A stretch of DNA of 64,000 bases from Minisyncoccota bacterium. GTDB taxonomy: Bacteria; Patescibacteriota; Minisyncoccia; Minisyncoccales; JAGOPM01. The DNA lies in assembly GCA_041651395.1 (NCBI GenBank), contig JBAZJI010000001.1, forward strand, positions 379,920 to 443,919, given 5' to 3'. Each line of letters begins with the position of its first letter. Position 1 is the stretch's first letter. The notes beneath the pieces are model-generated. The model was not told the origin of the DNA. It was given only the letters and a program-made list of their open reading frames with translations, and ran no database searches. A program made the position numbers and the translations under genes. Below are positions 1 to 64,000 of this stretch, piece after piece.

Positions 1-57
1 TACTCCGTAATCGAAACGCATAAATTCACTGGAAAAGCATAAAGAATAAATAAACCT

Positions 58-1386
58 ATGAAAATACATTTTGTAGGCATAGGTGGAATAGGTATTAGTG
101 CCATAGCTCAGTATTACCGGGCGCTTGGCCATCATGTCACGGGTACCAATCTTGAGCATACAGAAATTATCGAGGCTATGCGCCGTCGCGACATAGAGGT
201 TTTTGTCGGGGCACACGAAGAATATGTTCCGCGGCTTAAAAATATGCAACTGGATTTGGTTGTCCACAACCCGGCCGTACCGGTGAATAACCCGGAAATT
301 ATCGAAGCTAAGAGACTGGGCATAAAGGTAATGTCCGCTCCCGAGCTTTTGGGCCAGATTACCAAAGAGAAATACACTATCGCGGTTTGCGGGTCGCATG
401 GCAAAAGCACCACTACTTCCATGTTAGCCGTGGCTATGATTAATTTGGGGCTTGATCCCACAGTCATTGTCGGTACTGCCTTAAAGGAGTTTGGGGATAG
501 TAATTTTCGTTTAGGCAAAAGCAAGTATTTATTAATTGAAGCTGATGAGTATAAGAGCTCATTTTTGAATTACTGGCCCCAGATTATTGTTTGCACTAAT
601 ATTGAGGCTGACCATCTAGATTACTTCAAGACTTTTGGCAATATCGTCAAAAATTTTCAACAATTTGTTTCTCATTTGGGCCCGGGAGGGTTTCTAGTAG
701 CGAGCAAAGACGGAGGAGTCAAAAAGAAACTTAAGATTAAAAAAGACGCGCAATTTCAGGTTATCGAGTACTCAAAAAAGCAGCGCGATGCCGCAGCAGT
801 TAAGCGGGCGGTTTTTGTTCCTGGAGAGCATAATGTTTCTAATGCCATGGCAGCTCTGGAAGTTTGTCGGATTTTGGATAAAAAAGACAAAGACATTTTG
901 CCCGCTATTGGCCACTACCATGGCGCATGGAGACGTTTTGAAACCTCGGAGATAAAGATTTATACCCAAGTTGGCCCTAAGGATGCCACCTTCATTTCCG
1001 ACTATGCGCACCATCCTACGGAAATTTTGAGCACTCTGCAGGCCTGTAAGGAAAAATATAAAAACCGCAAGATTATCGCCATTAATCAGCCCCACCAATA
1101 CGAAAGGACGCTTAATTTGAAAAAAGAATTTATTAAGGCTTATAAAACCGCTTCCAAGAAAAAATATTTCGACCACCTTTTCATAACCGATATTTACGAT
1201 GTGAAGGGGCGCGAAAACAGCGCAATTAAGCAGCAGATTAATGCTCAGATGCTCGCGCAGGCCTGTAAAGATAAAAAGATTTCCTATTTGCGTAAGGAGG
1301 AAGTTAAAGATGTTCTTAAGCGCCTGGTTATGGGCGGAGAGGTAATTTTATTGATGAGCGCCGGAGATTTTTACAGGCTTAGCTAA
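58..1386 (+). CDS. murC: UDP-N-acetylmuramate--L-alanine ligase
   Basis: 442 aa. N-terminal Rossmann motif VGIGGIGISA and Mur-ligase P-loop CGSHGKSTTTSM. Full-length Mur ligase layout. Confidence 0.9.
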   Translation: MKIHFVGIGGIGISAIAQYYRALGHHVTGTNLEHTEIIEAMRRRDIEVFVGAHEEYVPRLKNMQLDLVVHNPAVPVNNPEIIEAKRLGIKVMSAPELLGQITKEKYTIAVCGSHGKSTTTSMLAVAMINLGLDPTVIVGTALKEFGDSNFRLGKSKYLLIEADEYKSSFLNYWPQIIVCTNIEADHLDYFKTFGNIVKNFQQFVSHLGPGGFLVASKDGGVKKKLKIKKDAQFQVIEYSKKQRDAAAVKRAVFVPGEHNVSNAMAALEVCRILDKKDKDILPAIGHYHGAWRRFETSEIKIYTQVGPKDATFISDYAHHPTEILSTLQACKEKYKNRKIIAINQPHQYERTLNLKKEFIKAYKTASKKKYFDHLFITDIYDVKGRENSAIKQQINAQMLAQACKDKKISYLRKEEVKDVLKRLVMGGEVILLMSAGDFYRLS

Positions 1387-1397
1387 AATATTAAAAT

Positions 1398-3342: not shown

Positions 3343-4746
3343 ATGGGAAAAAACTGTAAAACGTTTTGGGTTTTTTTAGCCATGGCTATAGTTGCCTTAA
3401 TACTTAGCGCCAATTCGGTTGCCTTAGCTTTTGAGGCATCCGATGCTGTGTGCGCCGAAAAGGCCTTGGATGCTTTTTGCGCCAAAGTAGAAAAGGAGGA
3501 GTGCGATATCAGCCTAAAGGCTTGTTTGGCAATGTTTGAACAGCGCGCCAAAATTTTTGATGCCGGTGTCCAAGAAGCTAAACAAAAAGGTAAAACCTTA
3601 AGCGGGGAAATTTCGTCTTTGCAATCGAAAATTAAAAAATTGGATAACGAAATCCAACATAATACGGTTATCATCAAAGATTTGACAGTCCAAGTTAAAA
3701 GCACCGAGGAATCCATTACTGACACCCAATCAAAAATTGAAGCAGCCCGGGAAAGGCTTAAGAGTTTGCTCGTTTCCATTTTTAAGGAGGATAATAAATC
3801 TGGCTTGGAGCTTATTTTGGGTGGGGAAAATTTGACCGAGACAGCTGATAATTTTATTGGTTTGAAAACCCTTTCAGAAAGGAATCAAGCGCTTTTGGCC
3901 ACGATCGTTGACTTGAAGACTTATTTAGAAAATCAGAAACAAAAGCTTGGGGAGCAAAAAGGGAGTTTAGAAGATGCGGTTGCAAAAAAAGAAGTGCAGA
4001 AAAACCAGAACGTGGAGTTGAAAGAGGAGAAAAATGAGGTTCTAACCCAAACTAAAGGCGAAGAAGCGCTCTTCCAGCAATACAAGCAGCAGGCTGAGGC
4101 ACGCGCCGCAAAAATCCGTTCTCGTATTTTTCAGCTAGCCGGCATTTCCGGGGTTTCCAAGGCGCCAAGCTTTGGTGAAGCCATTGAGATTGCACAGCGC
4201 GCTGGCGCCAAAGTTGGCGTTCGGCCGTCATTTATTTTGGCTATTCTAGCCCAGGAAACTCGCATTGGACAAAATGTGGGCAAATGTTACGTTGTGACTG
4301 AAGATGGCAAAGGCGCTAACGGCAAGCCAGTGATGCGGGCTAATCAAGTGATAGCCTTTATTCAAATCACCAAAGATGCCGGGCTTGATTTTAAGAGCGT
4401 GCCTGTTTCTTGCCCGATTCCCTCTATGGGGTGTCCCTATGGTGGGGCTATGGGCCCGGCGCAATTCATGCCAACCACTTGGAATCTTTTCAAAGATCAA
4501 ATTTCTGCTATTACCGGAAGAGCAGCCAATCCTTGGAATATCGAAGATGCTTTTTATGCCGCAGCCTTATTTGTTAAGGATGCCGGCGCCAATGCGGCCG
4601 GGAAGGGAGAGCTCAAAGCAGCGGCCAGATATTTTGGCTCCGGAGCTTATGGCTATCAAAACCAAGTGCAGGTGCGCGCTTCTTGTATCGAGAAATTTAT
4701 CGCCGAGGGAACGATGAGCACTAAGTGCGAGTCCATGATATTTTAA
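3343..4746 (+). CDS. Secreted coiled-coil protein with C-terminal MltB/SLT-like lytic transglycosylase domain
   Basis: 467 aa. Signal/TM segment FWVFLAMAIVALILSA, long heptad-rich middle region, and C-terminal SFILAILAQETRIGQN resembling the catalytic-Glu motif of lytic transglycosylases. Confidence 0.55.
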   Translation: MGKNCKTFWVFLAMAIVALILSANSVALAFEASDAVCAEKALDAFCAKVEKEECDISLKACLAMFEQRAKIFDAGVQEAKQKGKTLSGEISSLQSKIKKLDNEIQHNTVIIKDLTVQVKSTEESITDTQSKIEAARERLKSLLVSIFKEDNKSGLELILGGENLTETADNFIGLKTLSERNQALLATIVDLKTYLENQKQKLGEQKGSLEDAVAKKEVQKNQNVELKEEKNEVLTQTKGEEALFQQYKQQAEARAAKIRSRIFQLAGISGVSKAPSFGEAIEIAQRAGAKVGVRPSFILAILAQETRIGQNVGKCYVVTEDGKGANGKPVMRANQVIAFIQITKDAGLDFKSVPVSCPIPSMGCPYGGAMGPAQFMPTTWNLFKDQISAITGRAANPWNIEDAFYAAALFVKDAGANAAGKGELKAAARYFGSGAYGYQNQVQVRASCIEKFIAEGTMSTKCESMIF

Positions 4747-4849
4747 GAAAAACATCGCGAATGCGTGAGAGATAGTTTTTCTTAAACCTCACCAAAGTGT
4801 AATCACGGCGGCGGGGTAGCTCAATTAAAATCCGATAACTAAATAAAAC

Positions 4850-4878
4850 AAAAAGCCCCTTTCGGGGCCTTTTGTTTT
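4850..4878. terminator. Bidirectional intrinsic terminator between convergent genes
   Basis: AGCCCC-TTTC-GGGGCC hairpin flanked by an A-run and a T-run. Confidence 0.7.
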
Positions 4879-5626
4879 ATTTCTGAAATTCTTGTATTAC
4901 TTTATCGATTTTTCCGGCCATAATTTTTTCAATATTATGCCAAGATTTATTTAAGCGGTGGTCAGTAATCCTATCTTGAGGGAAGTTATAAGTGCGGATT
5001 TTTTCGCTCCGGTCGGCGGAACCAATTTGGGCATTACGCTCCGCTTGCACGCTGCCCGTGGCGCTATTTTCTTTAATCTCTAAAAGTTTGGCACGCAAGA
5101 GATTCATGGCGTTTTCGCGGTTTTGCTGTTGGCTGCGCTCGGTTTGCGAAGTTACGGCGATATTGGTCGGGATATGAACTAAGCGCACGGCGGTCTCACG
5201 TTTATTTACATTTTGTCCGCCTGCGCCGCCGGCTTTACTGGTTTCAAAGCGGATATCCGAGGGATTAATTTTAAGTTCGGTTTCTCTAGGAATTCTTAAA
5301 ACCGCAACAGAGACGGTTGAGGTATGAACTCGGCCTTGGCGCTCGGTTTGCGGTACTCTTTGCACGCGATGCACACCGCCCTCCTGCTTAAAGAGGCGAT
5401 AAACTGCAGGGCCGCTGATGATAAAGCTGATCTGCTTAAAGCCTGCCAAATCTGTTGGGCTTTCTTCGGTAATTTTTACGCCGAAACCTTGCGATTGGGC
5501 ATAACGGATATACATATTGGCCAAATCAGACGCAAAAAGAGCGGACTCTTGCCCGCCCACTCCGGCGCGGATTTCCACCGCGACGCTTTCTTGCTGCCCA
5601 AGGTTTGTATTTTGGGCAATTTCCAT
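4877..5626 (-). CDS. prfA: Peptide chain release factor 1-like, lacking N-terminal domain 1
   Basis: 249 aa. GGQ motif ([12 protein letters not shown]), RF1-type codon-recognition loop [17 protein letters not shown] (PxT), and RF1-like [19 protein letters not shown]. The ORF cannot extend 5' because rpmE ends 3 nt upstream. Confidence 0.8.
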
Positions 5627-5629
5627 ATA

Positions 5630-5899
5630 TTATTCGGCTTTAGCTTTGGCAGCCTTCTTAGCAGCTCTTTTAGCTTTCTTGGAGATGATTCCTTCTTTTT
5701 TGGCAGTCTGCCTCTGTTTGAATTTTTGAATCTGGCCGACAGTTTCAAGGATTTTTTCCTGGCCGGTATAGAAGGGGTGGCATTTAGGGCAAATTTCAAC
5801 CTCGATGTACTCCTTGGTGGAGCCAGTGGTAAAGGTATTGCCGCAAGCGCACCTAATAGTGGCTGCTTCAAAATATTTTGGGTGGATATCCTTTTTCAT
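5630..5899 (-). CDS. rpmE: 50S ribosomal protein L31
   Basis: 89 aa. MKKDIHPKY start and a CxxC...C..CHPFYTG zinc ribbon. Confidence 0.9.
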
Positions 5900-6114
5900 A
5901 ATAGTCCGATATATTCGTTAACAAATATGTTTAACATAAAAAAATGAAATATGCAAGAGGGGAGAGCTGTCAGTTTTGCTAGGGGCATTAAGATTTTGTC
6001 TCTTAAGGGAGGGAAATCATTCATTATTGACATGGTAAAAATATTGTGTTATGAATAGATAGTATCAATTTCATAAATGTGCCCAAAAGTGATTAGGGCG
6101 CTATAAGGAGGAAA

Positions 6115-6273: not shown

Positions 6274-6363
6274 CTTTTCTTCCGAATCATTAATAATATA
6301 TCCCCCTCATTTTGGGGTTTTTATTTGCCGAACGGGAATATAAATCGCAAAAAAGGAGGTAGT

Positions 6364-9458: not shown

Positions 9459-9545
9459 ATATTTATAGTAACACTTGAAAGATTTCGAGTGCTTACGTTT
9501 TTTTCAAAATTTAATAACGCATAAATATGCGGACAGGAGGATATA

Positions 9546-11568: not shown

Positions 11569-11723
11569 GCCAACACGTGACTAACCACGTCACTAGATCG
11601 TTTCAAATTGAATAACCACCTAAATTATTGATTTATATTTTTGGTGCCAGCCAAAAATATATTAGACGAAGCAATTTTTTGCGGCATTGGCCGTTAAAAG
11701 TTGTTTCATTATACGTTTATTTT

Positions 11724-13200
<1,477 letters not shown>

Positions 13201-13453
13201 TATTTTTTCATCTTTTTTCTTCGGAAAAATGCATGAAAGAAAAGGCGATAGGGTTTGAGAACTGGAATTCCGTTCTTAAATTCACAACTTAGCCTTACCC
13301 TTTGGGGCATCTTAGGAAATACCGAAGGGGACGTATAATGGACAACTTTTAGTGGCAAATGTTTTAGATGGTTATTCAATTTGAAGCGAAGCCCGCCGAA
13401 AGGCGGGTTTTTGCGTGTAATAAAAAACAGCTTAGTTAAAGCTGTTATGATGA

Positions 13454-14023
13454 TTAAACTTCAAGAATGGTAAAACCTCCGTTTTGTTCCAGTGTTTCAA
13501 TGGCGGCCCGGATAAACTCGCGGCGGAATTTGCGCACAACTCTTCTTTGCGGATCGGTTTTGAGTATTTTGTCCAATTCCCAAATGCGGATAAAAATCCA
13601 ATCAAGGAAATCGACAAAATCATATTCATTGATGATATCCCGGAAGTGTTTAGCCTCCTTGCGCCGAAGGTGAAAATATTCCTTGCGTAGCTTGTTGCAC
13701 TGCACGATTTTTCCCAAAAGCTTAAGTAAGTCTGAATAGATCCGCTTGTTTATCTTTTCTTTAATGCCCAGCTCATTAACAATACAGATGACCACCTCTT
13801 GTGGAAAACGCTCATTAAAGGGCTCGTGGAAAGAAAAATGTTCCTCGGGCGGCGGACGCGGCAGGCTATGCGAAAACGGCATGTCTCCCAGCTCTTCATC
13901 TTTCATGCGGACTCGTGGGGCAATGTGATGCCTCGAAGTCCTTTTTGTATACGAGTGCCGTTTTTGATTGGGTGAGATAATTTTTGAGTAACGGCAACCC
14001 AGCGAAACGGTAGCGGGTCCCAT
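13454..14023 (-). CDS. Hypothetical protein
   Basis: The ORF is open to 14029. The second ATG (14023) is preferred because AGAAAGGAGG lies 6 nt upstream. No recognisable motif. Confidence 0.5.
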   Translation of the reverse strand: MGPATVSLGCRYSKIISPNQKRHSYTKRTSRHHIAPRVRMKDEELGDMPFSHSLPRPPPEEHFSFHEPFNERFPQEVVICIVNELGIKEKINKRIYSDLLKLLGKIVQCNKLRKEYFHLRRKEAKHFRDIINEYDFVDFLDWIFIRIWELDKILKTDPQRRVVRKFRREFIRAAIETLEQNGGFTILEV

Positions 14024-14195
14024 AAGCATCCTCCTTTCTTGATAATGGACTGCCTAATTTTAAGCGACAAGCAAAGTTTAGGGCAAATTGCTTTTCCCCA
14101 ACAAAAATGGTAAAAAATTTGTGATGGATTTGTCAATCGATAAATATACTTGCATTTAAGTGGGCTGCGTGCTTATATGGTGGCAAGACAAATAT

Positions 14196-15059
14196 ATGGA
14201 CAAAGTATTAATTTCAAGGTTGTTGAAAATCGGCGGTATTATCGCTGCCTTTGCAATACTATTTGCAGTTGATGCTTGGCTTTACGAAAATAAAAATAAT
14301 AAATTTCCTCCCGTCAGGAGCGAGCTCGAAGAAGAGGAACAGTTTACGGAGGAGGCTGATTTAGGTGGTGATCGGACTGTAGGCGGGCAGATAGCAACAA
14401 AAGAGGAATTTTCAAATAACGAAATTGAAGATGCGAACTCTGATACACAACAAAAACCTTCAGAGATTACAATAAAAAGTAGTGAGATAAAAATCAGCAG
14501 CAAGCCCTCCATAAAACCGCAAGTGGCCGGAGTTAATAGTGTTCTGACAGAAAAAATCCAATATCAAATATTGGCGCCAAACATTTCGCGGGCTATGGGG
14601 TTTTCTTTCAAATATCCGGCCAATATTTTTAAGGTCAGTGCGGGCAAGACGAGCCTTTTACTTTTTAGCCAATATTCCTTTATCAGTAACTTTTCCGGGC
14701 TTTCGGGTCAGAAAATGTCTCATAACTATTCCATTGAATTTGTAAATTATAACAGCGATTTACAGGAGGCGCTCAAAAAAGAAATGCCTTATGCGGTCGG
14801 GCAGATTTTTAAGGATGGGAAATTTGTTCCCGTTCCCGGTTACGCAGAAAAATTCTCATTGGCCGGCCAAGATGGTTTTGTGGTAATGGAGGGTGCGGAG
14901 GGATTGAATATGCATTACTTTTTCTTGCCCAAAACAGCCAAGACGTCACTGGTTATTAGGTTCAAATTTATTGGAGAAAACCTAAAGCCCAAGCTTTCGG
15001 AAATCGAGCAGAAAAAATATTTTAACGAAGTATTATCATCGTTAGTAATAAAGAAATAA
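14196..15059 (+). CDS. Membrane-anchored/secreted hypothetical protein
   Basis: Internal ATG of ORF 14160-15059. TM segment IGGIIAAFAILFAV followed by an acidic linker. Terminator at 15074-15100. Confidence 0.5.
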   Translation: MDKVLISRLLKIGGIIAAFAILFAVDAWLYENKNNKFPPVRSELEEEEQFTEEADLGGDRTVGGQIATKEEFSNNEIEDANSDTQQKPSEITIKSSEIKISSKPSIKPQVAGVNSVLTEKIQYQILAPNISRAMGFSFKYPANIFKVSAGKTSLLLFSQYSFISNFSGLSGQKMSHNYSIEFVNYNSDLQEALKKEMPYAVGQIFKDGKFVPVPGYAEKFSLAGQDGFVVMEGAEGLNMHYFFLPKTAKTSLVIRFKFIGENLKPKLSEIEQKKYFNEVLSSLVIKK

Positions 15060-15162
15060 ATTTGATTGCTAAAAGCCCCACCCAATAATCGGTGGGGCTT
15101 TGACTTTAGGGCTTTTTGTGCTTAAATGCTTTTGTTCTTTGATTACTTAAAAAGGAGGAAAA

Positions 15163-15828
15163 ATGAATCGCAAATTCCCAAGTATGGAGCCGGATTCGGT
15201 TGATGAGACTTTGCAGATCCGACCAATGACCAATGATGGCCGGCAAATTATGCCGGCTAGGGAGCGAATGCCTCAAAAATGTTTTGATGAAGCATGCAAG
15301 TTTAATGTTTTTGGCTATGTTGCGGTGATTATCGAGGAAGATTCGCATTTATTTTTTAGCAATAATGCCCGAAGGGATCCGGTAATCTGGATTGCGGATA
15401 CCAGGATGTTTATGGGGGAAACTATTGCCGATGCAGCCGCAAGAACGATTCGAGAAAGGTTTTCTTTTGAATGTGACAAGGCGCGCTTCATTGAAACCGG
15501 CCGTTACGTGTCAGGAGTATTTGGGGCCAACAGCCAAACCAAACAGCCAGTTCATAAGCTGATATTGATTAATGCTTTGCTGATAACATCTAAGGAACGC
15601 AAAGCTTTGAAGATCAGCGGAAAGTATGATGGCTATCATTGGCTTTTAGCGGGAGAACCTTTGCATAGCAAAAGTTCTAAATATGCCCCGCTTCTCCGGC
15701 AGATTTTGGCCAAATACGTTGATTGGATACGCAAAGAAGGCAAAAAACCCTATCATGAAATGCTGGAAAAAATCCGTGCCCAGAACGAAAAAGACCTGAA
15801 GGATGAAAAGAATTCCTCTTTAATCTAA
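15163..15828 (+). CDS. Hypothetical protein, possible degenerate Nudix-like fold
   Basis: AGGAGG SD. GETIADAAARTIRERFSFE weakly resembles a Nudix box, but the key Glu residues are not all present. Confidence 0.4.
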   Translation: MNRKFPSMEPDSVDETLQIRPMTNDGRQIMPARERMPQKCFDEACKFNVFGYVAVIIEEDSHLFFSNNARRDPVIWIADTRMFMGETIADAAARTIRERFSFECDKARFIETGRYVSGVFGANSQTKQPVHKLILINALLITSKERKALKISGKYDGYHWLLAGEPLHSKSSKYAPLLRQILAKYVDWIRKEGKKPYHEMLEKIRAQNEKDLKDEKNSSLI

Positions 15829-15902
15829 GCCCCCCTAAAAGGGCTTTTTTCTTTTGTGCAAAAAAGGCTTGACTGGGGTTTTGGTCCCGGTAAAATAAAG
15901 AT

Positions 15903-16199
15903 ACAAGCTTTAGGGAAAATTTTTCCTAACTGCGCGCGCACCTTCTAAATCTGCATCAGCAGACTCTAAGATTAAAACAAGCCGACTTACTTATATTTTG
16001 TTTTCCGGATTAAGGAAAACTCACTCGATTGATTTGCCACAAAAGTCAATCATTTCATTTTCATTCTCATATAGAATTACGTTTTCGCTCGAGCAAAAAT
16101 CCGTTTCAAACAAATATAAGCCAAAAAAGCTACATAATATCTTAGTATCAGCTGCTGAAAAATCTCTTAAACGGCGCCCCAACAGGCGCCTTCCTTTTT
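15903..16199 (+). ncRNA. Candidate non-coding transcript (orphan promoter-to-terminator unit)
   Basis: TTGACT-N16-TAAAAT at 15869-15896 and terminator GGCGCC-CCAACA-GGCGCC-TTCCTTTTT at 16173-16199. No SD-led ORF inside. The family is not recognised. Confidence 0.25.
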
Positions 16200-16272
16200 C
16201 TTTGTTAATATTGACACATTAAAATATTTATTGTATTTATTAAGTATTAAAAATTATATAAGGAGGAAATGG

Positions 16273-16722
16273 ATGAGAACAATTTGGGACCTTATCCCGC
16301 CATATGATCGCGATGAGTATGCGGCAGCATTGGTAAGCGACGTGAACCGTAACGTGGCTATTTATTCGGAAGAGGCAAAGAAAACCGACGATAAGATGAA
16401 ATTGGTGGAGCTGATTTTACTCAAGCTTGGACACTTCAACGAGAAGTATCCGTTCTTCCTGCTTAACCATCATGCCAGAAAACTTCTCGAAGGCGCCGAG
16501 GTAGAAACCACCAACGAAAAATCCGCTTGGAAGATGCTCAAGAAATTTACCTTGCCCGGCGGAAGAGTGGTTTTGGAAAAGGTGCAGGATTCCGAAAGGA
16601 ACATTAAGATCGCCAGCCGAACATTCCTCAAGCTGGTTGACGAGAATGGCCAAGACATTCCAGAGACTGTTTGGACCGATGTGCAAAAGCTCAATACTTT
16701 ACATCTAGCTATTGGTAGTTAG
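16273..16722 (+). CDS. Hypothetical protein
   Basis: Internal ATG with AAGGAGG upstream. Terminator ACCCCG-TTATGCG-CGGGGT follows. Confidence 0.5.
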   Translation: MRTIWDLIPPYDRDEYAAALVSDVNRNVAIYSEEAKKTDDKMKLVELILLKLGHFNEKYPFFLLNHHARKLLEGAEVETTNEKSAWKMLKKFTLPGGRVVLEKVQDSERNIKIASRTFLKLVDENGQDIPETVWTDVQKLNTLHLAIGS

Positions 16723-16826
16723 CGTCAAAAAATTAACCCCGTTATGCGCGGGGTTCTTTATTTAATAATTTGACTTTGGGCCAAGGCTAAGTTATAAAAT
16801 GGCACATTCAAAATTTAGGAGGCGAA

Positions 16827-17429
16827 ATGGAGAACGATGATTATGACTTAGATTATGTGCGTAAATGTGCTGCGAAATGGCAGCTTGCATTTTTTATCGC
16901 AATGGCTTTGTTGCTTATCTCTCTGCTTATTATTTGGATGATTTGCGACAAAAATGTTTTAGTGCCAAAGGGGCAGGGTTATGACGGCAAAAACAAAATA
17001 TTCATCGAATATGTCGGTGAACCGACCCCAGTGCAGTCGCAAAACGAAGGATCCGCGGTTGTTGCAGAGAAGGCTTGGCGCTTCGAGCAAAAAATTGTTG
17101 CCACACAGGAAACGGACCAATCTTTAATTGCTAAAATCCAGCAAGCTAAGGATGAGGAGAAAATCATAGTGGATAAGGTAAAAGAATTGTATCGCAACGG
17201 CAACACGGTTTATGTTTTGACCGCTGCGGGCAGCTCTTTGGCCACTAATGAATACTACTACCTGTGGCGGGACAAATTTGAACGCAAAGATATCTCCTTT
17301 TACTTCGGGAATTATGCATCGGCCTATATTTTCACTTTTGTCGACAAGCCTCAAAAACCGGTATTTTATATTCCTGCTTCATGGCAAAAAGAATGCCAAA
17401 ATGTTTTCGAAAAACAAAAACCCCGCTGA
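16827..17429 (+). CDS. Membrane-anchored hypothetical protein
   Basis: AGGAGG SD. TM segment LAFFIAMALLLISLLIIWMI. Confidence 0.5.
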   Translation: MENDDYDLDYVRKCAAKWQLAFFIAMALLLISLLIIWMICDKNVLVPKGQGYDGKNKIFIEYVGEPTPVQSQNEGSAVVAEKAWRFEQKIVATQETDQSLIAKIQQAKDEEKIIVDKVKELYRNGNTVYVLTAAGSSLATNEYYYLWRDKFERKDISFYFGNYASAYIFTFVDKPQKPVFYIPASWQKECQNVFEKQKPR

Positions 17430-17446
17430 TAAGCAGGGTTCTTTTA

Positions 17447-18430
17447 TTATTTGAGGTAACCGTTTTCCTTATACCATTTAACTCCACGCTTGATGGCTTC
17501 GCGGATTGGGGTATAAACCAGCCCTAGTTCTTTAATCGATTTTTTGTTGTTGAAGTAAAATTTGATGCCGTGGAATTTAACCATGTCCAAAGTCATTTTT
17601 GGGCGGCCACCGGTTGCCCTCTTAAGTAAATCATTGGCGGCAGTCATTATCCATAAAATAAACTCTGGTAGGGGGATAAAAGGCGCTTGCGCTCCAATTT
17701 CTTGAGCGATTATTTTTTTGAGGCGATAATAAGAAATATTTTCCGCGCAAATGATATAGCGTTGGCCTTTTTTGCCATTTTCGATAGCTAAGCAGATGGC
17801 ACGGGCCACATCTTTAACGTCGACAACCGATTGCCCATTTTGGGGATAAAAAATATTATAAGGGAAACTGAATTTGAATAGGGAATCGGTAGTAATCCGG
17901 CGAATATCGCCATCACCATGCATGGAGGCGGGGCATAAGATGGTGGCGTCCAGGCCTAAGGTTACGGCTTTGAGCACTTCCTGCTCGCCGAAATATTTCG
18001 AGTCGCAATAGGCCACATTAAGCTTAGCCAAATTATAAACGGTATTTTCATCGGCAGGGGTATGGTCTTCATTATAACCAATGGTTACCGTGGAGCTGAT
18101 ATGGATAAGTTTTTTGATTTTATTTTTAAGGCAAGCCAAGGCGACATTTTTTGCCCCCTGATGGTTAACCTTAAACATTAAGTCGTTTTGCTTGCGCCAA
18201 TAGCTTACGATTCCGGCCATATTGACGACCGCATCATAGCCAATGATAAGTTTCTCTAACTGTTTTGCATCCGTAACATCCCCGAAAACCAGTTTAATTT
18301 TATTAGTATCTAAAAGTTCGGTTTTTGAAGTATCGGGCACCATAACCGTGACCTCGTGACCTTCAGAGATGAGTAAATTGGCCGTGTGATGGCCCAGAAA
18401 ACCTGAACCGCCTACAATTAATATCTTCAT
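17447..18430 (-). CDS. NAD-dependent epimerase/dehydratase (extended SDR)
   Basis: Start taken at MKILIVGGSGFLGHH (Rossmann GxxGxxG). YxxxK in AYCDSKYFGE. Confidence 0.8.
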   Translation of the reverse strand: MKILIVGGSGFLGHHTANLLISEGHEVTVMVPDTSKTELLDTNKIKLVFGDVTDAKQLEKLIIGYDAVVNMAGIVSYWRKQNDLMFKVNHQGAKNVALACLKNKIKKLIHISSTVTIGYNEDHTPADENTVYNLAKLNVAYCDSKYFGEQEVLKAVTLGLDATILCPASMHGDGDIRRITTDSLFKFSFPYNIFYPQNGQSVVDVKDVARAICLAIENGKKGQRYIICAENISYYRLKKIIAQEIGAQAPFIPLPEFILWIMTAANDLLKRATGGRPKMTLDMVKFHGIKFYFNNKKSIKELGLVYTPIREAIKRGVKWYKENGYLK

Positions 18431-18596
18431 AACAATATGCCATCTTACCAAAAAGGGGATATATTTTCCACAGGGGGATATTTTCAAAATAAAAGACTTG
18501 CTATAATAAGGCACAAGGTCGCGGGCCTGTAAAAGGCCTCAGTTATTAAAATAATCCCGCCCTGCCCGGGCATAAGGCAGGAAAAAAGTAATAAAC

Positions 18597-19280
18597 ATGA
18601 TTGATTTTAATGCATTCGTGACACCGTTTCAGGCGACCCTCGTGGACTCCCTGACTGCGGTTGTTCTTTTCCTGCCCAAGCTGATCCTGGCCCTTCTTGT
18701 TGCTTGGATCGGTTTCTGGATTGCGGGACTATTCGGCAAAGTCATTTCTGAGATTATCAAAGCCGTCAAATTTGATAAGATCTTTGAAGACAAGGGCTGG
18801 AGTGAAGCCCTCAAGAAAGCCGACATCGATGGCGCCCCTTCTTCATTTATTGGCGCGATCATCAAGTGGATTTTTGTCATCATTTTCTTAGTGATGATTT
18901 CGGACATTTTGGGTTTAGGGACATTTAGCGTTCTTCTTAAGGAGATCGTTGCCTACTTGCCCAATGTTGCCATTGCTTCTTTGCTTTTTGTGGCCACTGT
19001 CATTATCACTGACCTTGTTGAGAAAGTGATCGTGGTCTCCATTGGCGGAATGAAAGTTAGCTATGCAACGGCTATCGGTTCTGTGGTCAAATGGGCTATT
19101 TGGATTTTCTCCATTTTTGCCATCATGGACCAGCTAAGAATCGCCCCTTACATTGCCCAGACTTTGTTTGCCGGAATTACTTACTTCTTCGTTTTAGCCT
19201 TGGGCCTTGCCTTTGGGCTTGGCGGAAAGGAAGTGGCTGGAGATATCTTAAAAGATATCCGCGACAAATTCCGCAAGTAA
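18597..19280 (+). CDS. Integral membrane protein (multi-TM; small-conductance-channel-like TM repeats)
   Basis: 227 aa with at least 5 hydrophobic helices. Terminator at 19293-19320. Confidence 0.5.
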   Translation: MIDFNAFVTPFQATLVDSLTAVVLFLPKLILALLVAWIGFWIAGLFGKVISEIIKAVKFDKIFEDKGWSEALKKADIDGAPSSFIGAIIKWIFVIIFLVMISDILGLGTFSVLLKEIVAYLPNVAIASLLFVATVIITDLVEKVIVVSIGGMKVSYATAIGSVVKWAIWIFSIFAIMDQLRIAPYIAQTLFAGITYFFVLALGLAFGLGGKEVAGDILKDIRDKFRK

Positions 19281-19335
19281 TTTGCAATTAAAAGAACCCG
19301 CCTTTATTGGGCGGGTTTTTTGATAATTGCTAATA

Positions 19336-19731: not shown

Positions 19732-19843
19732 AACAACCTCCTTAAAGATCTATTTACTATAACGATGTTATAGCGATATTTATAGATTTGTCAAGAATAG
19801 TGGTATCGCTTGCGGTTTCCACAACTTAGCCGCCCTTAGGCTA

Positions 19844-19872
19844 TTGACAGTGTTTGTGGATTTTGCTAATAT
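19844..19872 (+). promoter_or_regulatory. Candidate 23S-5S promoter (TTGACA-N17-TAATAT)
   Basis: Hexamers at 19844-19849 and 19867-19872. Same TTGACAGT context as the 16S promoter. Confidence 0.5.
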
Positions 19873-20123: not shown

Positions 20124-23075
<2,952 letters not shown>

Positions 23076-28467: not shown

Positions 28468-28468
28468 C

Positions 28469-48145: not shown

Positions 48146-48638
48146 GTGCGATTGCGAAGATCTAAAAACGCAGCTAGAGAAACTGGAAACAAAGCTTCAG
48201 GATATCGCCGCTCAAAGCGAAACATTCAAAAGTAATTGGCAGAGAGAGCGCGCTGATTTTCTTAACTATAAAAAGGAGGAAGGCGAACGACTCAAGCAAA
48301 TGCGGCAATATGCGCTAGAATCACTGCTTGAACGCCTGCTGCCAGCCCTTGATTCGTTTGACATGGCCAAAACCCATTTGAGCGAAGCTCAGTTTAAGGA
48401 GGCGGGCACGCAGGGATTGCTGATGACCGGAAAGATGATTGTTGAGGCTTTCAAAAGTATGGGGGTAGAACAAATCAGCTATCTTGGCCGCCAATATGAT
48501 CCAGTAGAGTGCGAGGTAATAGAGGAAGTGGAAAATACCGAAACCCTACCCGGGACAGTGGTTGAAGAAATGCAAATCGGATACAAAACTAAAGAAAGGC
48601 TATTACGGCCTTGTAAAGTAAAAATTTCTAAAAATTAA
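48099..48638 (+). CDS. grpE: Nucleotide exchange factor GrpE
   Basis: NWQRERADFLNYKKE and a C-terminal beta domain. Alternative ATG at 48117. Confidence 0.85.
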   Translation: MKKRKKMTEKNPKHAKCDCEDLKTQLEKLETKLQDIAAQSETFKSNWQRERADFLNYKKEEGERLKQMRQYALESLLERLLPALDSFDMAKTHLSEAQFKEAGTQGLLMTGKMIVEAFKSMGVEQISYLGRQYDPVECEVIEEVENTETLPGTVVEEMQIGYKTKERLLRPCKVKISKN

Positions 48639-48650
48639 AATATAAATTAT

Positions 48651-53276: not shown

Positions 53277-53741
53277 ATGAAAGTCATACTCCTAAAAGAC
53301 ATTGAGAACCTCGGCCGCAAATTTGAGGTCAAAGAAGTTTCCGACGGCTATGCCCGCAATAGGCTTTTCCCGGATAAACTGGCCAAAATGGCTACCCCTG
53401 ATGAGCTTAAAAAATTAGAAAAAGAAAAGACAAAGAAAGCCAGCCAAGCGGAGGCCAATTTGGCAGGTATCGAGGAATTAGTCGGCAAGATTGATGGAAC
53501 CGAGATTGCCATCCCCATGAAGATTGCTAAAACTGGCAAGCTCTATGAATCGGTTAATGCCCAGAGAATTTCTTTAGAGCTTAAAAAGATAGGGTTTGAA
53601 GTCAAAAAGAGCCAAGTGGCACTCGAACACCCCATTAAAGAGTTAGGAGAATATAATGTTAGGCTGGAATTTGATATGGGCCTGGAAGCGGAGATTAGAG
53701 TCATCATTACCGAAGATCAAGAACAAAAAAAGGAGGATTAA
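53277..53741 (+). CDS. rplI: 50S ribosomal protein L9
   Basis: [28 protein letters not shown]. Confidence 0.9.
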
Positions 53742-53766
53742 ATCCTCCTTTTTGCTTATATAGATT

Positions 53767-54823: not shown

Positions 54824-55036
54824 TAATGCAAAAAACAGTGTATATCGAACACTGTTTTTTGTTTGACAATTATAAAAAATTTGGCATAATGTAAAGAATT
54901 AACAATTAAATAAAGGAGGAATAATAAGCACTAGTTGAACATTTTAGCCTGGGCCCCCAGGCATTATTTGTTGATTTTGAGAATATTTTTGGCTCGATAA
55001 TATATTTTAAGTGTGAAAAATCAAAAGGAGGTCAAA

Positions 55037-56161: not shown

Positions 56162-57106
56162 TTAGGCGTTTAGCGAATGGTGCTTTTTATGAATGTCTTT
56201 AAGCCGTTTAGAGGTTACATGAGTATATATTTGGGTGGCAGTGATAGAGCGATGGCCCAAAAATTCCTGAACAACCCTTAAATCAACCCCTTGGGAGAGC
56301 AAATCCGTGGCAAAGCTATGGCGCATAACGTGGGGCGTGGTATTGGCCGGCAAACCCGCCAAAAGCGCACATCTTTTTATCATCTTTTCAATAAAACGCG
56401 GTGTAAGCCTTTTAGAATTTCTCGCCCCGCGAAAATTTACAAATAGAGCCTTTTCTGTATCTTTGCTGCCGCGCATTTTCAAATATTCTCGTATCCAATT
56501 CAGGGCACGTTTGGAGAAATAAACCGTGCGGGTATGCGAGCCCTTACCAACTATCGAAAGCTCGAAATCCTCGGCCTCGGGGGCAATTTTGAGCTGCTCA
56601 GCATTAAGCGCGGTAAGCTCAGAAATACGCATTCCGGTGGAAAAAAATGTTTCTAAAATTGCCCGATCGCGGCAGCCATTTAACTTTTTTACATCAGGAA
56701 CGGAAAATAATTTTTCAACCTGCTCAACTGTCAAAAACCTGACTAGTTTTTCTTCCTTGGCTCGCGCCAATTTTATTTTTTCCGTCGGCAGGGAATTGAT
56801 ATCGTGCTCGGCAAAATAGCTCATTAGCTGCCTTAAGGCGATTAAGTAGTAGTTCTGGGTGGTCTTTTTAAGCCCAACCGAGCCGGCAGCAGAACGGCTC
56901 AGGTAGACCCGATAATCCCAAATATGCTCAGGGGTAAGCTCATGAGGCTTAAGGGAAGAGAGTTTTTTAATTTCCAACCATTTCAAAAATTTCCGAAGGA
57001 ATCTGGAATAATTTTCCTGCGTTTTTGAACCTAATCCTTTTTCTACATCAAGCCAGTCTAAAAAGTCGTTTAAGTGTTGGGGAAGTGCTTTTTCCGAATT
57101 CTTCAT
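56162..57106 (-). CDS. Tyrosine recombinase, XerC/XerD family
   Basis: 314 aa. Catalytic pattern includes R (GMRISEL region), HVMRHSFAT, and LGHRSITATQIYTHV (the Tyr). Confidence 0.85.
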   Translation of the reverse strand: MKNSEKALPQHLNDFLDWLDVEKGLGSKTQENYSRFLRKFLKWLEIKKLSSLKPHELTPEHIWDYRVYLSRSAAGSVGLKKTTQNYYLIALRQLMSYFAEHDINSLPTEKIKLARAKEEKLVRFLTVEQVEKLFSVPDVKKLNGCRDRAILETFFSTGMRISELTALNAEQLKIAPEAEDFELSIVGKGSHTRTVYFSKRALNWIREYLKMRGSKDTEKALFVNFRGARNSKRLTPRFIEKMIKRCALLAGLPANTTPHVMRHSFATDLLSQGVDLRVVQEFLGHRSITATQIYTHVTSKRLKDIHKKHHSLNA

Positions 57107-61345: not shown

Positions 61346-62679
61346 TGGTATTTTATGATCTCGTTCTTAAATTGCTCGCCGCGGTCTCTATAATCCTTAA
61401 ATAATCCGAAACTTGGCGCAGCGCAGGAAAGTAAGCAGGACATTCCTTGGGGCGTATGCTTAATGCAGAACTCTACAGCCTGGCGCATGTTACTGGCAAA
61501 AATATAATCAGGCAACGGGATTTCGCGTTTCTTGCACAAGTCCCCTATTGCAGAGAGCATGAACTTTCCCGACTCAGGAAAAAAGGCGATTTTTTTGATA
61601 TTGGCCCCGATAATGGCAAGTGCCAACTGGTCGTATTTAATTTTCCGATCGTAGCCCCCTAAAATTATTGAGCCGACTTTACCGTTAAGCGACTTAATAG
61701 CGGCGATCGTGGCTTCTGGGATAGTTGCTAAGCTGTCATCGTAAAAATCAATGCCATAATAATTGCCCAAATATTGCATTCGATGCTCAAGAGGCCTGAA
61801 AGTTTTAAGCGCTTTTTCAATTTTCCCCGCCTCCAGGCGCAAGGCTAAAGCGACTACAATGGCGGCTTGGATATTTTCCCGGTAAATTTCCGGCGATATC
61901 GGCAAATCGTTTTCCTCGACAAAATTAGAAATGGCTATCTGGTTAAAATCAATGGCGCTGGCTTTAGTCTTTTTAACGAGCTTGGCGATTAATTCCGAAT
62001 TACCATTATAAACAAAAATCCCGTTCTTTTTCTGCCACAAAACTATATTGGCTTTGGCCTTAAAATATTCGTTAAAATCTTTGTAATAATCCAGATGCTC
62101 GGGGTAAACATTAAGAAAAACAGAAATATCCGGGCTAATCTCTAAACGGTCCAGCTGGTGCGAAGACATTTCATATACACACCATTGCCCGGCCCGCAAT
62201 TTTGGCAAAATGGAAAGCGGCGGGATACCTATATTGCCCAAAAGCTGCGTCTTAAATCCGGCGGTTTTCAGAATGTGATAAACAAGCGAAGCCGTGGTGC
62301 TTTTGCCTTTTGTGCCCGTTACCCCGATAACCCAAGCGGGACAGTTTTTCAAAAATATTTCAGTTTCCGAGGTAACCTTGCAACCTCGCGGCAGCAACTT
62401 TTGAATTTTACGCAAAGGCAATCCGGGGGTTTTGATAACTACGTCAATCCCTTCAAAAGCTAAAGGAAAATCAGCTCCTAGAAATAATTTTATTTTAGCT
62501 TTACGCGCTTTTTTCAAAAGTCGGCGCCCTTCTAAATCAAAATCGTCGAAAGCCTTTTCGTCGGCAATGGAAATTTTGCGCGAAATCTTCGCCTCAAAAA
62601 TCCACTTTAAGGTTTCCCGGCCTTCCCGGCCAAAACCCAAAACCAATATTTTTTTCTGTTTCAAGTCGGCGATTTTCAT
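61342..62679 (-). CDS. murD: UDP-N-acetylmuramoylalanine--glutamate ligase
   Basis: 445 aa. VLGFGREGRE Rossmann motif and P-loop GVTGTKGKSTTASL. Confidence 0.85.
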   Translation of the reverse strand: MKIADLKQKKILVLGFGREGRETLKWIFEAKISRKISIADEKAFDDFDLEGRRLLKKARKAKIKLFLGADFPLAFEGIDVVIKTPGLPLRKIQKLLPRGCKVTSETEIFLKNCPAWVIGVTGTKGKSTTASLVYHILKTAGFKTQLLGNIGIPPLSILPKLRAGQWCVYEMSSHQLDRLEISPDISVFLNVYPEHLDYYKDFNEYFKAKANIVLWQKKNGIFVYNGNSELIAKLVKKTKASAIDFNQIAISNFVEENDLPISPEIYRENIQAAIVVALALRLEAGKIEKALKTFRPLEHRMQYLGNYYGIDFYDDSLATIPEATIAAIKSLNGKVGSIILGGYDRKIKYDQLALAIIGANIKKIAFFPESGKFMLSAIGDLCKKREIPLPDYIFASNMRQAVEFCIKHTPQGMSCLLSCAAPSFGLFKDYRDRGEQFKNEIIKYQ

Positions 62680-64000
62680 AGCAAAGTCTTAAGACCAGCC
62701 AGTAATTTTTTCGGCAAAAAATTCTTTTGCAATTTGAATAACGCTTTTAATTGGGTTTTGGAAATCTTTTTCTTGGCTAATATCTCCCGGGCGCGTTTTA
62801 GAAGCACCTGATCAGGCAAAGCGTTTTGCCGATTATATTCCAAACCAAATTTTAATGCGGCTAAAGTTTCCAAACGCATCCCTACGCATTCCAAGGGCTT
62901 GCCTTGGGTATACCCGCTAAGCGCTTCTAAATCCCCTATCAAGGCGCTGTTCTCGAATAGATCGCTGCCAAAAATTTCTATGGCTTTTTCTTTACCCAAA
63001 AACGGATAAAGTATCAAATAGGCAAAAAGGCACTTACTGCAATTACCACACCAAGAAAATGTCGGTTTTTTGGTGCCCGAATACGAACGTTGAGCCACAT
63101 TGCAGCTCAAAAATATTTTATGATACTGCGTCAGTGAAGAAAAAATTTGCGCGCACTTTATCTCATTTAAGGGCCGGATGATACTGAAATATTCTAAGTC
63201 GCGGGAAATATTTTCCGACAAATAGCGGCGGAAATCCTTTTCGAATGCCAGGCTTTTGGAATATTGGTGGTTTATCTTTTTTTCCTGCCAAATTAGCGAC
63301 TCCTCATTGGCGCTATTCTCATTGGCGACAACAAAACCCTTATAGCCCCCCAAAATCGCACACAATGTTCCCAAAAAAGCCAAATAGGCCGAAAATGGGG
63401 TGTGGCCATTCAAAAATCCTTGTTGATTTAATTCTAAAAGCTTTGGGCAAATTTTGCGTTCAATAATAACCTGATCTTGAGCTCCGCTGATTTTGGCCAT
63501 CTCCAAGCTCGAGGGGATCGGGTTAAGCATCAGAACAGAAAAATTTTCTGAGGCTTTTTTGAACACCTCTATGCCCACGGCCGAATCCTTTCCCCCACCA
63601 AGTCCAAAAAGATAATCACGAGTCTTAAAATGTTTTGTGGGCACGGACTTGGCTTTGGAAAATGAAAAATCTACAAAATTTTTCTTCGAAAAATCGACAA
63701 TATTATTCTCATAAAAATATTGCCCCATTCCCTGCAAAAGTAATTTCTTCCAAAAGACAGCCTGCTTTTGGCTAAGCGTCCCTTTTTCGATGATAATCTT
63801 TGGGCTACAAAAGGCCTTCCAATAAGAGAATAATTCGATTAAGCCTAAGTTAAAAACCAAAGTATCGATAATTGGTTTATTAGCCGCTTGCGTGACCCAA
63901 GCCTCAAGGCCTACAATATTTTTTATCCGCACCCGAGGGAAAAACTCATGCTCCCCGGCAACAAAAGCAAAATCAACAACAAAATCGTTGTTTTCATCTA
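62676..64000 (-). CDS. PP-loop-like (GGGKDS) protein translationally coupled to murD; 5' end outside the window
   Basis: The frame stays open to the window edge. LFGLGGGKDSAVG resembles the SGGKDS PP-loop motif. C-terminal CGNCSKC. 4-nt overlap with the murD start. Confidence 0.5.
   Translation of the reverse strand, partial: DENNDFVVDFAFVAGEHEFFPRVRIKNIVGLEAWVTQAANKPIIDTLVFNLGLIELFSYWKAFCSPKIIIEKGTLSQKQAVFWKKLLLQGMGQYFYENNIVDFSKKNFVDFSFSKAKSVPTKHFKTRDYLFGLGGGKDSAVGIEVFKKASENFSVLMLNPIPSSLEMAKISGAQDQVIIERKICPKLLELNQQGFLNGHTPFSAYLAFLGTLCAILGGYKGFVVANENSANEESLIWQEKKINHQYSKSLAFEKDFRRYLSENISRDLEYFSIIRPLNEIKCAQIFSSLTQYHKIFLSCNVAQRSYSGTKKPTFSWCGNCSKCLFAYLILYPFLGKEKAIEIFGSDLFENSALIGDLEALSGYTQGKPLECVGMRLETLAALKFGLEYNRQNALPDQVLLKRAREILAKKKISKTQLKALFKLQKNFLPKKLLAGLKTLL

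Follow-up and report, generated by a model that had tools for sequence, protein, structure and literature searches.

Shine-Dalgarno motifs on accessory genes of a Paceibacteria clade with a 16S rRNA lacking the anti-Shine-Dalgarno sequence

How do perfect Shine-Dalgarno (SD) motifs come to mark part of the genes of a bacterium whose 16S ribosomal RNA (rRNA) has no anti-SD sequence? The question is raised by a stretch of 64,000 nucleotides from a Minisyncoccota bacterium (assembly GCA_041651395.1, contig JBAZJI010000001.1, positions 379,920 to 443,919), referred to, in its full length, as the window. An earlier note, made from the sequence alone, had divided the genes of the window into conserved genes starting without SD, and lineage-specific genes led by AGGAGG or GGAGG. 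The two classes, called here SD-less and SD-led, are distinct in anatomy and statistics; they recur across the clade in linkage with anti-SD-less 16S genes, and the motif is conserved between relatives.

Two classes of translation starts and a 16S rRNA without anti-SD

The 16S rRNA gene (11722-13205, plus strand) is full length, and matches Rfam RF00177 with 1378 bits over model positions 1-1533. Its 3' end (13190-13212) reads GTAGATCA and then TTTTATTTTTTCAT, which replaces CCTCCTTA. In the RNA, laid out as ...GUCGUAACAAGG-CACGGGUAGCGGAAGCUGCUCGU-AGAUCA-UUUUAUUUUUUC, helix 45 and the GAUCA motif are intact, and UUUUAUUUUUUC occupies the place of the CCUCCUUA expected after GAUCA. The terminus, ...GTAGATCA-UUUUAUUUUUUC, is devoid of CCUCC, and the absence of the anti-SD stated in the earlier note is confirmed. 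CCTCC does not occur inside the window 16S gene or in its trailer, nor in 330 nt of 16S trailer from 10 members of the clade. No displaced anti-SD (GATCACCTCC) was found in the 64 kb, including the region just upstream of the 23S gene, and a 16S tail split by an insertion was excluded on this ground.

Exact GGAGG, usually extended to AAGGAGG, lies 3-7 nt before the start at all 19 coordinates listed in the earlier note. Genes of the window, 61 in number, were curated from the open reading frame (ORF) map and Pfam matches. Pairing energies of the region from -20 to -1 with the canonical anti-SD ACCUCCUUA are bimodal, 19 genes scoring -9.3 kcal/mol or lower, and the other 42 scoring -7.6 kcal/mol or higher. 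A GGAGG whose end lies 3-9 nt before the start was found in 18 of 61 genes against 0.31 expected. It is the most enriched upstream pentamer (58-fold), followed by AGGAG (52-fold), and the motif is, as had been remarked, too regular for noise. Housekeeping genes account for about 40 of the 61, and about 20 genes lack any Pfam domain. SD-led genes without and with a Pfam domain number 15 and 4, SD-less genes 5 and 35 (odds ratio 26, p=9e-7), so that statistics bear out the division into core and lineage-specific genes. There are exceptions on both sides. SD-led genes bearing a Pfam domain encode the radical SAM, JAB-like, ThiF/E1 and HppA proteins. SD-less genes without Pfam domain are found at 8173, 14196, 37203 (preceded by a degenerate GGAAGG), 55529 (GGGAG) and 57199.

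SD-led genes are scattered along the window. Upstream of the 16S gene, all on the plus strand, SDs are located at 6107-6111 (taAGGAGGaaa, 52-aa ORF at 6115), 6355-6359 (aaAGGAGGtagt, 116-aa ORF with a GTG start at 6364), and 9536-9540 (acAGGAGGatata, radical-SAM gene at 9546). Between the 16S and 23S genes, they precede hyp189 (14030-14034, minus strand, gaaAGGAGGatgctt, start 14023), hyp221 (15154-15158, plus, start 15163), hyp149 (16262-16266, plus, start 16273), hyp200 (16818-16822, plus, start 16827) and hyp131 (19737-19741, minus, TTG start 19731). Five plus-strand sites mark the genes downstream of the 5S gene. A GGGGG at 23332-23336, additional to the sites already reported, precedes hyp164 (start 23342, dG -12.0). 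The SD at 23909-23913 leads hyp373 (start 23918), which opens the JAB/ThiF cluster, and a double SD, AAGGAGGAGG, at 25120-25127 leads the JAB-like gene (GTG start 25133). The SD of the ThiF/E1 gene (25897-25901, TTG start 25907) resides in the last codons of the upstream ORF, that of hyp86 (26571-26575, start 26583) inside the ThiF coding sequence. On the minus strand, SDs were found at 27573-27577 for hyp123 (start 27568), which is preceded by a TTGACT-17-TATAAT promoter, and at 33154-33158 for hppA (start 33149). The remaining sites, on the plus strand, are those of hyp293 (33977-33981, start 33986; 12/12 consensus promoter at 33850-33877, terminator at 34886-34905), hyp163 (36563-36567, start 36574; consensus promoter at 36467-36494, terminator at 37064-37082), hyp113 (37853-37857, start 37863), a 45-aa ORF with a single transmembrane segment (38205-38209, start 38215), and hyp151 (55027-55031, start 55037).

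Sigma-70 promoters lie 30-100 nt upstream of the SD motif, and two SDs (25897 and 26571) are found inside ORFs of a four-gene operon. A promoter function of the motif was rejected for these reasons, and for the same reasons the motif would act, as far as sequence can tell, as a translational element within the 5' untranslated region (5'UTR). A secretion or membrane signal was also dropped, since the products of SD-led genes include both soluble and membrane proteins.

Conserved genes start differently. No SD-like motif is present at any candidate start of the 20 conserved genes named in the earlier note, as the note had maintained, and the release-factor gene of the window is also SD-less. The housekeeping set includes murC, a GT4 glycosyltransferase, RF1, EF-Ts, MreC/D, PBP2, GreA, LysS, SerS, Mur ligases, DegT, FemAB, FtsQ, PMT, HrcA-GrpE-DnaK-DnaJ, an S41 peptidase, UppS, Xer, GltX, MurG, and ribosomal proteins bL9, bL25, bL27, bL31 and uS2; the rplA locus lies outside the window. 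At greA (33293-33337, plus) a TTGACA-16-TATTAT promoter abuts the ATG, and the predicted 5'UTR, of about 11 nt, is A/T-rich and has no G-run; this leader is nearly identical in a relative, L129. The lysS leader (34915-34958, plus) has a predicted 5'UTR of about 9 nt, and the operon-internal leader of dnaK (48626-48650, plus) reads ttctaaaaattaaaatataaattat. In 89 SD-less genes pooled from the clade, A ranges from 0.37 to 0.53 and G from 0.04 to 0.21 at positions -13 to -1, and about 50% of the bases are A at most positions between -13 and -3. For 8 of 21 SD-less first genes the predicted leader does not exceed about 11 nt, and the others are long, start sites being predicted throughout; the difference in leader length between SD-less and SD-led genes is only a trend (p=0.09). 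Near-leaderless core genes are predicted to include PMT at 47253, hrcA at 47360/47366, and lysS in L129. PMT (minus) and hrcA (plus) are divergent, and TATAAT is only 6-13 nt from their candidate start codons; the two transcripts may have little or no leader.

The window matches a metagenome contig (ENA ERZ27247363, k141_1056181, 951,739 bp), and start prediction makes use of SD motifs, which leaves room for an artefact, either a chimeric assembly or bin, or a biased choice of starts. However, SD-led and SD-less genes alternate gene by gene on one contig, and core genes have no SD at any of their alternative starts. When gene calls are ignored, a start codon and an ORF follow, at the SD distance, 18 of the 21 intergenic GGAGG. 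The same arrangement is seen in independent assemblies (ENA, Logan, JGI, NCBI), and 16S genes are physically linked to SD-led ORFs in at least four further loci. An artefact is refuted by these observations, and its likelihood is negligible. An independent gene caller picked identical starts in the window.

Some features of the window deserve mention beside the two classes. Two orphan SD-like sites, 6008-6012 (cttaagGGAGGgaaatc) and 54915-54919 (aaataaaGGAGGaataataagc), are not followed, at the proper spacing, by a start codon or an ORF, and may be remnants of lost cassettes or mark very small unannotated ORFs. The tandem paralogues hyp163 and hyp175 (36574-37730) have both MPF... N-termini, similar upstream regions and 12/12 consensus promoters. 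GGAGG is intact in one and degenerated to GGAAGG in the other, and the difference may represent an SD caught in the process of decaying. The genes at 23342-26843 form a five-gene cluster, located between the 5S gene and tRNA-Val, which encodes hyp164, hyp373, a JAB-like peptidase, a ThiF/E1-like protein and an 86-aa protein. Each gene has its own SD, and two SDs are embedded in the preceding ORF. The 86-aa protein could be a ubiquitin-like partner, and the cluster resembles a bacterial ubiquitin-like conjugation or defence operon; PADLOC returned only a weak E1 match for ThiF (E1-E2 models).

The rRNA genes of the window (16S, 11722-13205; 23S, 20118-23081; 5S, 23132-23238) are accompanied by three tRNAs. 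The 16S gene is unlinked, being separated from the 23S-5S pair by 6.9 kb of protein-coding genes (13206-20117). This spacer is a variable island made mostly by SD-led ORFans, and its content differs in the relative L123; three conserved SD-less genes, hyp287, an SDR epimerase and a mechanosensitive-channel-like gene, also reside there. The release factor encoded at 4877-5626 (minus), which begins directly after rpmE, is a class-I factor of only 249 aa. It matches only PCRF positions 99-194, and N-terminal domain 1 is seemingly missing.

Recurrence, turnover and conservation of SD-led genes

LysS homologues about 60% identical to that of the window carry the names Paceibacterota, Pacebacteria, Nealsonbacteria and Minisyncoccales, and because of these labels the organism is assigned, on sequence, to the class Paceibacteria (Parcubacteria) of the Candidate Phyla Radiation (CPR; Patescibacteria). 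The closest 16S among GTDB species representatives is only about 80% identical to that of the window. The clade considered here is marked by the tail AGATCATTT and by 16S sequences at least 85% identical. L123, and relatives whose 16S is 85-89% identical, have identical or near-identical tails. When metagenomes were scanned with a probe made of the clade helix 45 plus AGATCA, and ending at ...CTCGTAGATCA, all relatives at 85-89% 16S identity had UUU(U)AUUU tails; every clade match continued U-rich, and CCTCC was never found after GATCA. Members of the clade are present in samples such as ERR3438381-91, SRR8542065 and JGI Ga0116174.

GTDB species representatives were scanned for 16S genes with A/T after GATCA. 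The scan yielded 58 CPR-type (Patescibacteria-like) loci, in which GGCACGGGTAGCGGAAGCTGCTCGTGGATCA is followed by an A/T tail (UUUAUUU, AUUAAAC or AUUAUUUU, for example), and which share the helix 45 of the window; the cultured Minisyncoccus archaeiphilus is among them. The helix 45 signature is common to the window and to Paceibacterota and Minisyncoccus loci. About half of the matches of the scan were discarded as eukaryotic 18S contaminants, recognized by an ITS1-primer site (ITS, internal transcribed spacer) followed by GGATCATTA. Such 18S/ITS1 junctions (GTAGGTGAACCTGCGGAAGGATCATTA) reside inside assemblies labelled as bacteria or archaea (loci L003-L122). A single ITS sequence, TTAAAGAAATTTAATAATTTTGAAAATGG, is repeated in a dozen unrelated isolate assemblies, including those of Marinifilum, Planomonospora, Cellulomonas, Clostridium, Collinsella and Ornithinimicrobium; the recurrence points to a common eukaryotic contaminant.

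The 16S trailer of the clade has a structure of its own. In the window it spans 13213-13415 (plus) and features, without CCUCC, a UUCG-loop hairpin, a conserved AGGCGA...GAGAAC-GGAATTCC-GTTCT box and an intrinsic terminator. In 10 aligned trailers, which include those of L123, L136, L143, L145 and L133, the hairpin changes in sequence and pairing is retained; in the window it reads CUUUUUUC-UUCG-GAAAAAUG. An AGGCGA..GGTTYGAGAAyyyGAATTCrrTTCTTGA box, a GGnCAACTTTnAG box and the terminator follow on its 3' side. The trailer, unmatched by any Rfam family, is probably either a stem for processing or an element that is co-transcribed. A similar box, ACAACTTAGCC, is located upstream of the 23S gene, at about 19822.

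The coexistence of SD-led genes and anti-SD-less 16S is not confined to the window. hyp189, which adjoins the 16S gene, has 3 homologues among 5.8e9 proteins, all within the clade. One resides in L123, a syntenic contig of 9.6 kb, encoding proteins 57-95% identical to those of the window, and having an identical 16S tail without anti-SD. The L123 orthologues of hyp189, hyp221 and hyp149 retain their SDs, and four genes found only in L123 are likewise SD-led. Four further relatives, L129 to L132, have LysS proteins 82, 74, 73 and 69% identical to that of the window. Their MreC-MreD-PBP2-GreA-LysS-SerS-abhydrolase-Mur ligase-DegT-FemAB-FtsQ-HrcA-GrpE-DnaK backbone is SD-less, and most of the variable genes occupying the greA/lysS and lysS/serS slots are preceded by AAAGGAGG. 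The same dichotomy was observed in L123, L129, L131 and L132, and for one gene in L130, in genomes having a GC content of 0.32-0.44; G-rich motifs are perfect even at GC 0.32. SD-led ORFs share the contig with an anti-SD-less 16S gene in L123, L136, L143 and L145. In L131, the deposited call for the gene at 12437-12892 begins at an internal ATG. Its start is probably mis-set, since an ATG 15 nt upstream is preceded by a well-spaced GAGGAGG.

Pooling six clade loci gave 46 SD-led and 89 SD-less genes (46/135). GGAGG is exact in 44 of the 46, the core is directly preceded by A in 40 of these 44, and the spacer measures 4-6 nt in 37. The pooled consensus is (A)AAGGAGG, and motif and spacing are those of a canonical CCUCCUU partner, in geometry as in extended complementarity. 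GTG and TTG starts are more frequent in SD-led than in SD-less genes (22% versus 6%, p=0.008).

The dense pattern is specific to the clade, and is generic neither to hypothetical genes nor to all anti-SD-less CPR. Two distant anti-SD-less Paceibacteria loci, L148 (Minisyncoccales) and L149 (a closed Nealsonbacteria chromosome), were used as negative control, and none of their 29 genes, 8 of which lack a Pfam domain, is SD-led. In the 58 GTDB loci, enrichment of GGAGG at the SD position is only slight (9.7% versus a mean of 5.2%), with scattered textbook SDs, one in Minisyncoccus. A general property of anti-SD-less CPR was rejected on these results.

Variable content was found at conserved positions, namely the greA-lysS and lysS-serS slots and the 16S-23S spacer. 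Slot genes of L129-L132 have no homologue in the window, and slot contents are unrelated between relatives at 69-82% LysS identity, including the pair at 82%. The cassettes have a near-consensus sigma-70 promoter, a 5'UTR and a terminator of their own. HppA of the window and of L129 are 40% identical, versus 66-95% for the flanking core proteins. HppA of the window has one relative at 94%, the best outside match being 48% identical, and hppA is a xenologous replacement. The window copy (30969-33149, minus) is SD-led, the L129 copy (3887-6073) SD-less; matches at about 48% are mostly sodium-translocating pyrophosphatases of Bathyarchaeia.

The earlier note had suggested that SD-led genes are recent imports still carrying foreign signals. 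Horizontal transfer at high flux would bring in cassettes with a portable promoter-SD-terminator package, derived from anti-SD-bearing donors or vehicles; the SD would be inert in the host, translation would be SD-independent as in core genes, and cassettes would be replaced before the SD decays. The flexible, non-homologous slots, the hppA replacement, the consensus promoters and terminators of the cassettes, and the SDs of genes unique to L123 all agree with this view. Islands adjoin rRNA and tRNA genes, and potential donors are the about half of Parcubacteria retaining an anti-SD (PMC9297842). The composition of the genes does not support it. GC is even in the window (0.39-0.48), and the search for foreign DNA by composition revealed no GC difference between classes, nor one in the G+C content of third codon positions (GC3). 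GC3 values of SD-led genes and host backbone in five loci are 0.46/0.45, 0.41/0.39, 0.47/0.52, 0.26/0.26 and 0.44/0.42, and the codon usage of the SD-led set is nearest to its own backbone in 4 of 6 loci. Host-like values over the range 0.26-0.46 imply either long residence, or close donors, which would be also anti-SD-less. Motifs, moreover, are perfect in the GC 0.32 genome and intact in 44 of 46 cases, few being half-decayed, and no SD-led genes occur in distant anti-SD-less Paceibacteria, whose genes come from the same CPR pool.

Searches for a donor or a vehicle were negative. No outside donor was detected in homology searches with hyp189 and HppA, and homologues are absent outside the clade and from viral collections. 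There were no matches to PHROGs at E<=0.001 (one was marginal, 0.003), no relatives in two scans of viral contigs, and no integrase, attC-like repeat or phage gene associated with the slots. The sole recombinase of the window is a Xer-type gene (56162-57106). A phage or mobile origin was rejected on the PHROGs and viral-contig results, the weak E1 match being all that PADLOC contributed.

The motif itself is conserved. In four orthologue pairs the 7-nt SD core is identical at 28 of 28 positions, versus 146 of 217 (67%) for the flanks (Fisher p=3.5e-5), and the comparison is conservative, as flanks include promoter boxes. One pair, hyp123 and its L129 counterpart, retains SD and promoter although the proteins are only 42% identical. 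Since cassettes match the host in composition, and the core is conserved while flanks drift, SDs are held, with moderate confidence, to be maintained by selection in anti-SD-less cells, and hence to be still working. The import proposal is thus only partly right. Inert hitch-hiking of the motif is, overall, unlikely.

Candidate readers of the motif

We infer a role of the motif in translation, with a reader inside the cell. According to the reading put forward here, the clade 16S would have lost the anti-SD long ago, and two start architectures would now coexist. The vertically inherited core genome would have shed all SDs and would start translation through short A-rich, G-poor leaders, or by operon coupling, in a way akin to the SD-independent upstream-adenine initiation of Bacteroidia. 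The flexible genome would be made of lineage-restricted, fast-turnover cassettes lodged in fixed slots between core genes, each with a near-consensus sigma-70 promoter and a terminator of its own, and with a genuine 5'UTR in which (A)AAGGAGG stands 4-6 nt from the start. In the cassettes the SD would be a selected translation-initiation signal, and its reader a partner distinct from the 16S tail. The putative partner, a protein or an RNA, would apparently be clade-restricted. We regard recognition by a clade-specific partner of this type as the likeliest explanation, if a tentative one. A reader other than the 16S tail, which the earlier note had also listed, is left by elimination, although the partner is only putative; the interpretation given in the note is, overall, partly supported. 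A more definite version, in which an anti-SD surrogate (protein or small RNA) recognizes AAGGAGG 4-6 nt upstream of the start and delivers mRNAs to anti-SD-less ribosomes, is conceivable but doubtful. In an extreme variant of it, SD-led cassettes would be read by CCUCC-bearing ribosomes such as those of the host cell of the presumed episymbiont.

Several points weigh against a non-16S reader. The window is about 7% of the 952-kb source contig; starts are predicted, and gene callers use SDs in choosing them. The search for a CCUCC-bearing RNA, over the window and about 150 kb of clade loci, was negative, and pairing with the real U-rich tail is no better than with shuffled sequence. Only four orthologue pairs, involving one or two relatives, were available to assess conservation of the core, slot genes turning over too fast to supply more, and the very fast turnover is also a prediction of a pure import model.

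The first of these points favours a canonical anti-SD hidden elsewhere, in a divergent second 16S, in a separate 3' fragment, or in a mature 3' end unlike the gene model, with SD-led genes served by a minority ribosome population. The AAGGAGG motif and its spacing are exactly those predicted by CCUCCUU(U) pairing, a pattern specific to the clade is expected of a clade-specific extra gene, and heterogeneous 16S tails in one genome are documented in Alteromonas (PMC6107228). However, CCUCC tails are missing from window, trailers and clade loci. A paralogous 16S with the same helix 45 should match the GATCA probe, and clade matches of the metagenome scan are all U-rich. CPR genomes of about 1 Mb have usually a single rRNA set. 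The closed genome of the cultured Minisyncoccus has one copy of each rRNA (PMC12281837), and its single 16S gene (L029) is without anti-SD. A second, anti-SD-bearing 16S, the first proposal of the earlier note, thus found no support in window, clade loci or metagenome scan, and hidden anti-SDs of any kind are improbable.

A trans-acting CCUCC RNA was rejected, as the non-coding CCTCC occurrences of the window and of 8 clade loci are all SD complements, terminator stems, rRNA antisense or tRNA arms. A bidirectional terminator in the rplI/rpmA gap (53729-53752) has a GGAGG/CCTCC stem, AAAGGAGGATTAAATCCTCCTTTTT, and contains the sole intergenic CCUCC of the window other than SD complements.

The motif may be selected for a job other than ribosome recruitment, as the binding site of a CsrA-type (GGA-binding) repressor, keeping accessory genes silent until needed, or as an mRNA-stability element. 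Conservation without a visible rRNA partner, confinement to accessory genes, often tightly controlled, and a fixed position beside the start codon, suited to a steric repressor, are compatible with such a role. The exact heptamer and its spacing, however, match the canonical SD and not the consensus of any known regulator, enrichment of GTG and TTG starts suggests that initiation is helped rather than blocked, and no candidate regulator was found among window genes. A regulatory role is, on balance, quite unlikely.

Alternatively, A-U and G.U pairs might join the U-rich 16S tail to the motif, or to the A-rich leaders of SD-less genes. Conservation of the UUUAUUU tail extends over the clade and to other Paceibacteria, and SD-less leaders are rich in A from -13 to -3. 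Duplex energies with the real tail contradict the hypothesis: SD-less leaders (mean -3.16) are at the level of shuffled (-3.35 +/- 0.18) and reversed (-3.30) controls, and SD-led leaders reach only -4.25. AAATAAA has no advantage over its permutations, and tails having U-runs of only 3 (L133, L145) cannot pair six purines. A-runs would pair better than GGAGG, and exact GGAGG would not be selected. An altered SD/anti-SD pair is therefore largely refuted, and highly improbable.

Known systems and meaning of the two regimes

Loss of the anti-SD in reduced genomes has been a recurrent event, reportedly described by Lim and colleagues in 2012 together with a matching genome-wide loss of SDs. Surveys of reduced genomes agree that genomes devoid of the anti-SD are devoid of SDs as well (Amin et al. 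2018, PMC6107228; Nikolaeva et al. 2020, PMC7782861). The genome behind the window shares with them a small size (about 0.95 Mb), a 16S without CCUCCU, and an SD-less core. In contrast to them, AAGGAGG is its most enriched upstream motif, found in about 30% of genes and apparently under purifying selection. In Parcubacteria the anti-SD motif CCTCCT is detectable in only 48% of members; those lacking it overlap with the group lacking uL1, and SD helices presumably do not form in them (Tsurumaki et al. 2022, RNA 28:1041, PMC9297842). Lineage and rRNA feature, a 16S 3' end without CCTCCT, are the same as in the window. That study deals with rRNA and ribosomal proteins only, and reports neither mRNA leaders nor an SD-led class; no paper on mRNA-side SD use in Parcubacteria was found. 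The rRNA half of the paradox is already published, the mRNA half appears to be new, and the latter contradicts the published generalization that genomes without anti-SD have no SDs.

Bacteroidia have SD-blind ribosomes, upstream-adenine ("Kozak-like") initiation and few SD-led regulatory genes (Baez 2019, PMC6847099; McNutt 2023, PMC9976891; NAR 2026, PMC13000453). As in the window, most genes have A-rich, G-poor SD-less leaders, a minority has strong SDs, and two regimes coexist in a cell. In Bacteroidia, however, the anti-SD is retained and hidden under bS21, bS18 and bS6, while the 16S gene of the window has none. Bacteroidia have few SD-led genes, which are conserved and autoregulatory (rpsU, prfB) and are read once the anti-SD becomes uncovered; the SD-led class of the window is large, accessory and fast-evolving, and includes ORFans plus the hppA, radical-SAM and JAB/ThiF genes. 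The SD-less class works like the A-rich-leader initiation of Bacteroidia, yet is no member of that system, because there is no anti-SD to sequester.

Other systems are similar in part. Canonical SD/anti-SD initiation is matched by the GGAGG-type motif of 19-20 of 61 window genes, and not by the other two thirds; the 16S tail, taken as GAUCAUUUUAUUUUUUC, has no CCUCC, and the motif is not complementary to it. The two 16S classes of Alteromonas, which have different anti-SDs (Amin et al. 2018), offer a possible route to two regimes, but no second 16S class was detected in window or clade loci, and no matching SD subclass was found in Alteromonas. Genomic islands and cassette arrays also occupy fixed slots between conserved genes, with variable contents and self-contained promoter-terminator units. 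Window cassettes differ in being compositionally typical and in having no slot integrase, attC or phage genes; the feature that defines them in common is the SD, a signal of translation which host ribosomes are not expected to read.

SD/anti-SD pairing is the textbook means of start-site selection in bacteria, and this lineage has lost the anti-SD, purged SDs from the core genome, and kept them on accessory genes. Gene callers which train one model of ribosome-binding site per genome will mis-set starts in such genomes, as illustrated by the L131 case. If SDs are inert, they provide a built-in marker of gene flux, useful to date and trace horizontal transfer among otherwise untraceable CPR ORFans. 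If an anti-SD-bearing rRNA is hidden in the genome, the clade would be a clear case of specialized ribosomes dedicated to the flexible genome. If SDs are functional, a new reader and a new mechanism of initiation would be at work, amounting to a natural orthogonal channel for translation; given a surrogate, the flexible genome would have a translation channel separable from the SD-independent housekeeping channel and independently controllable.

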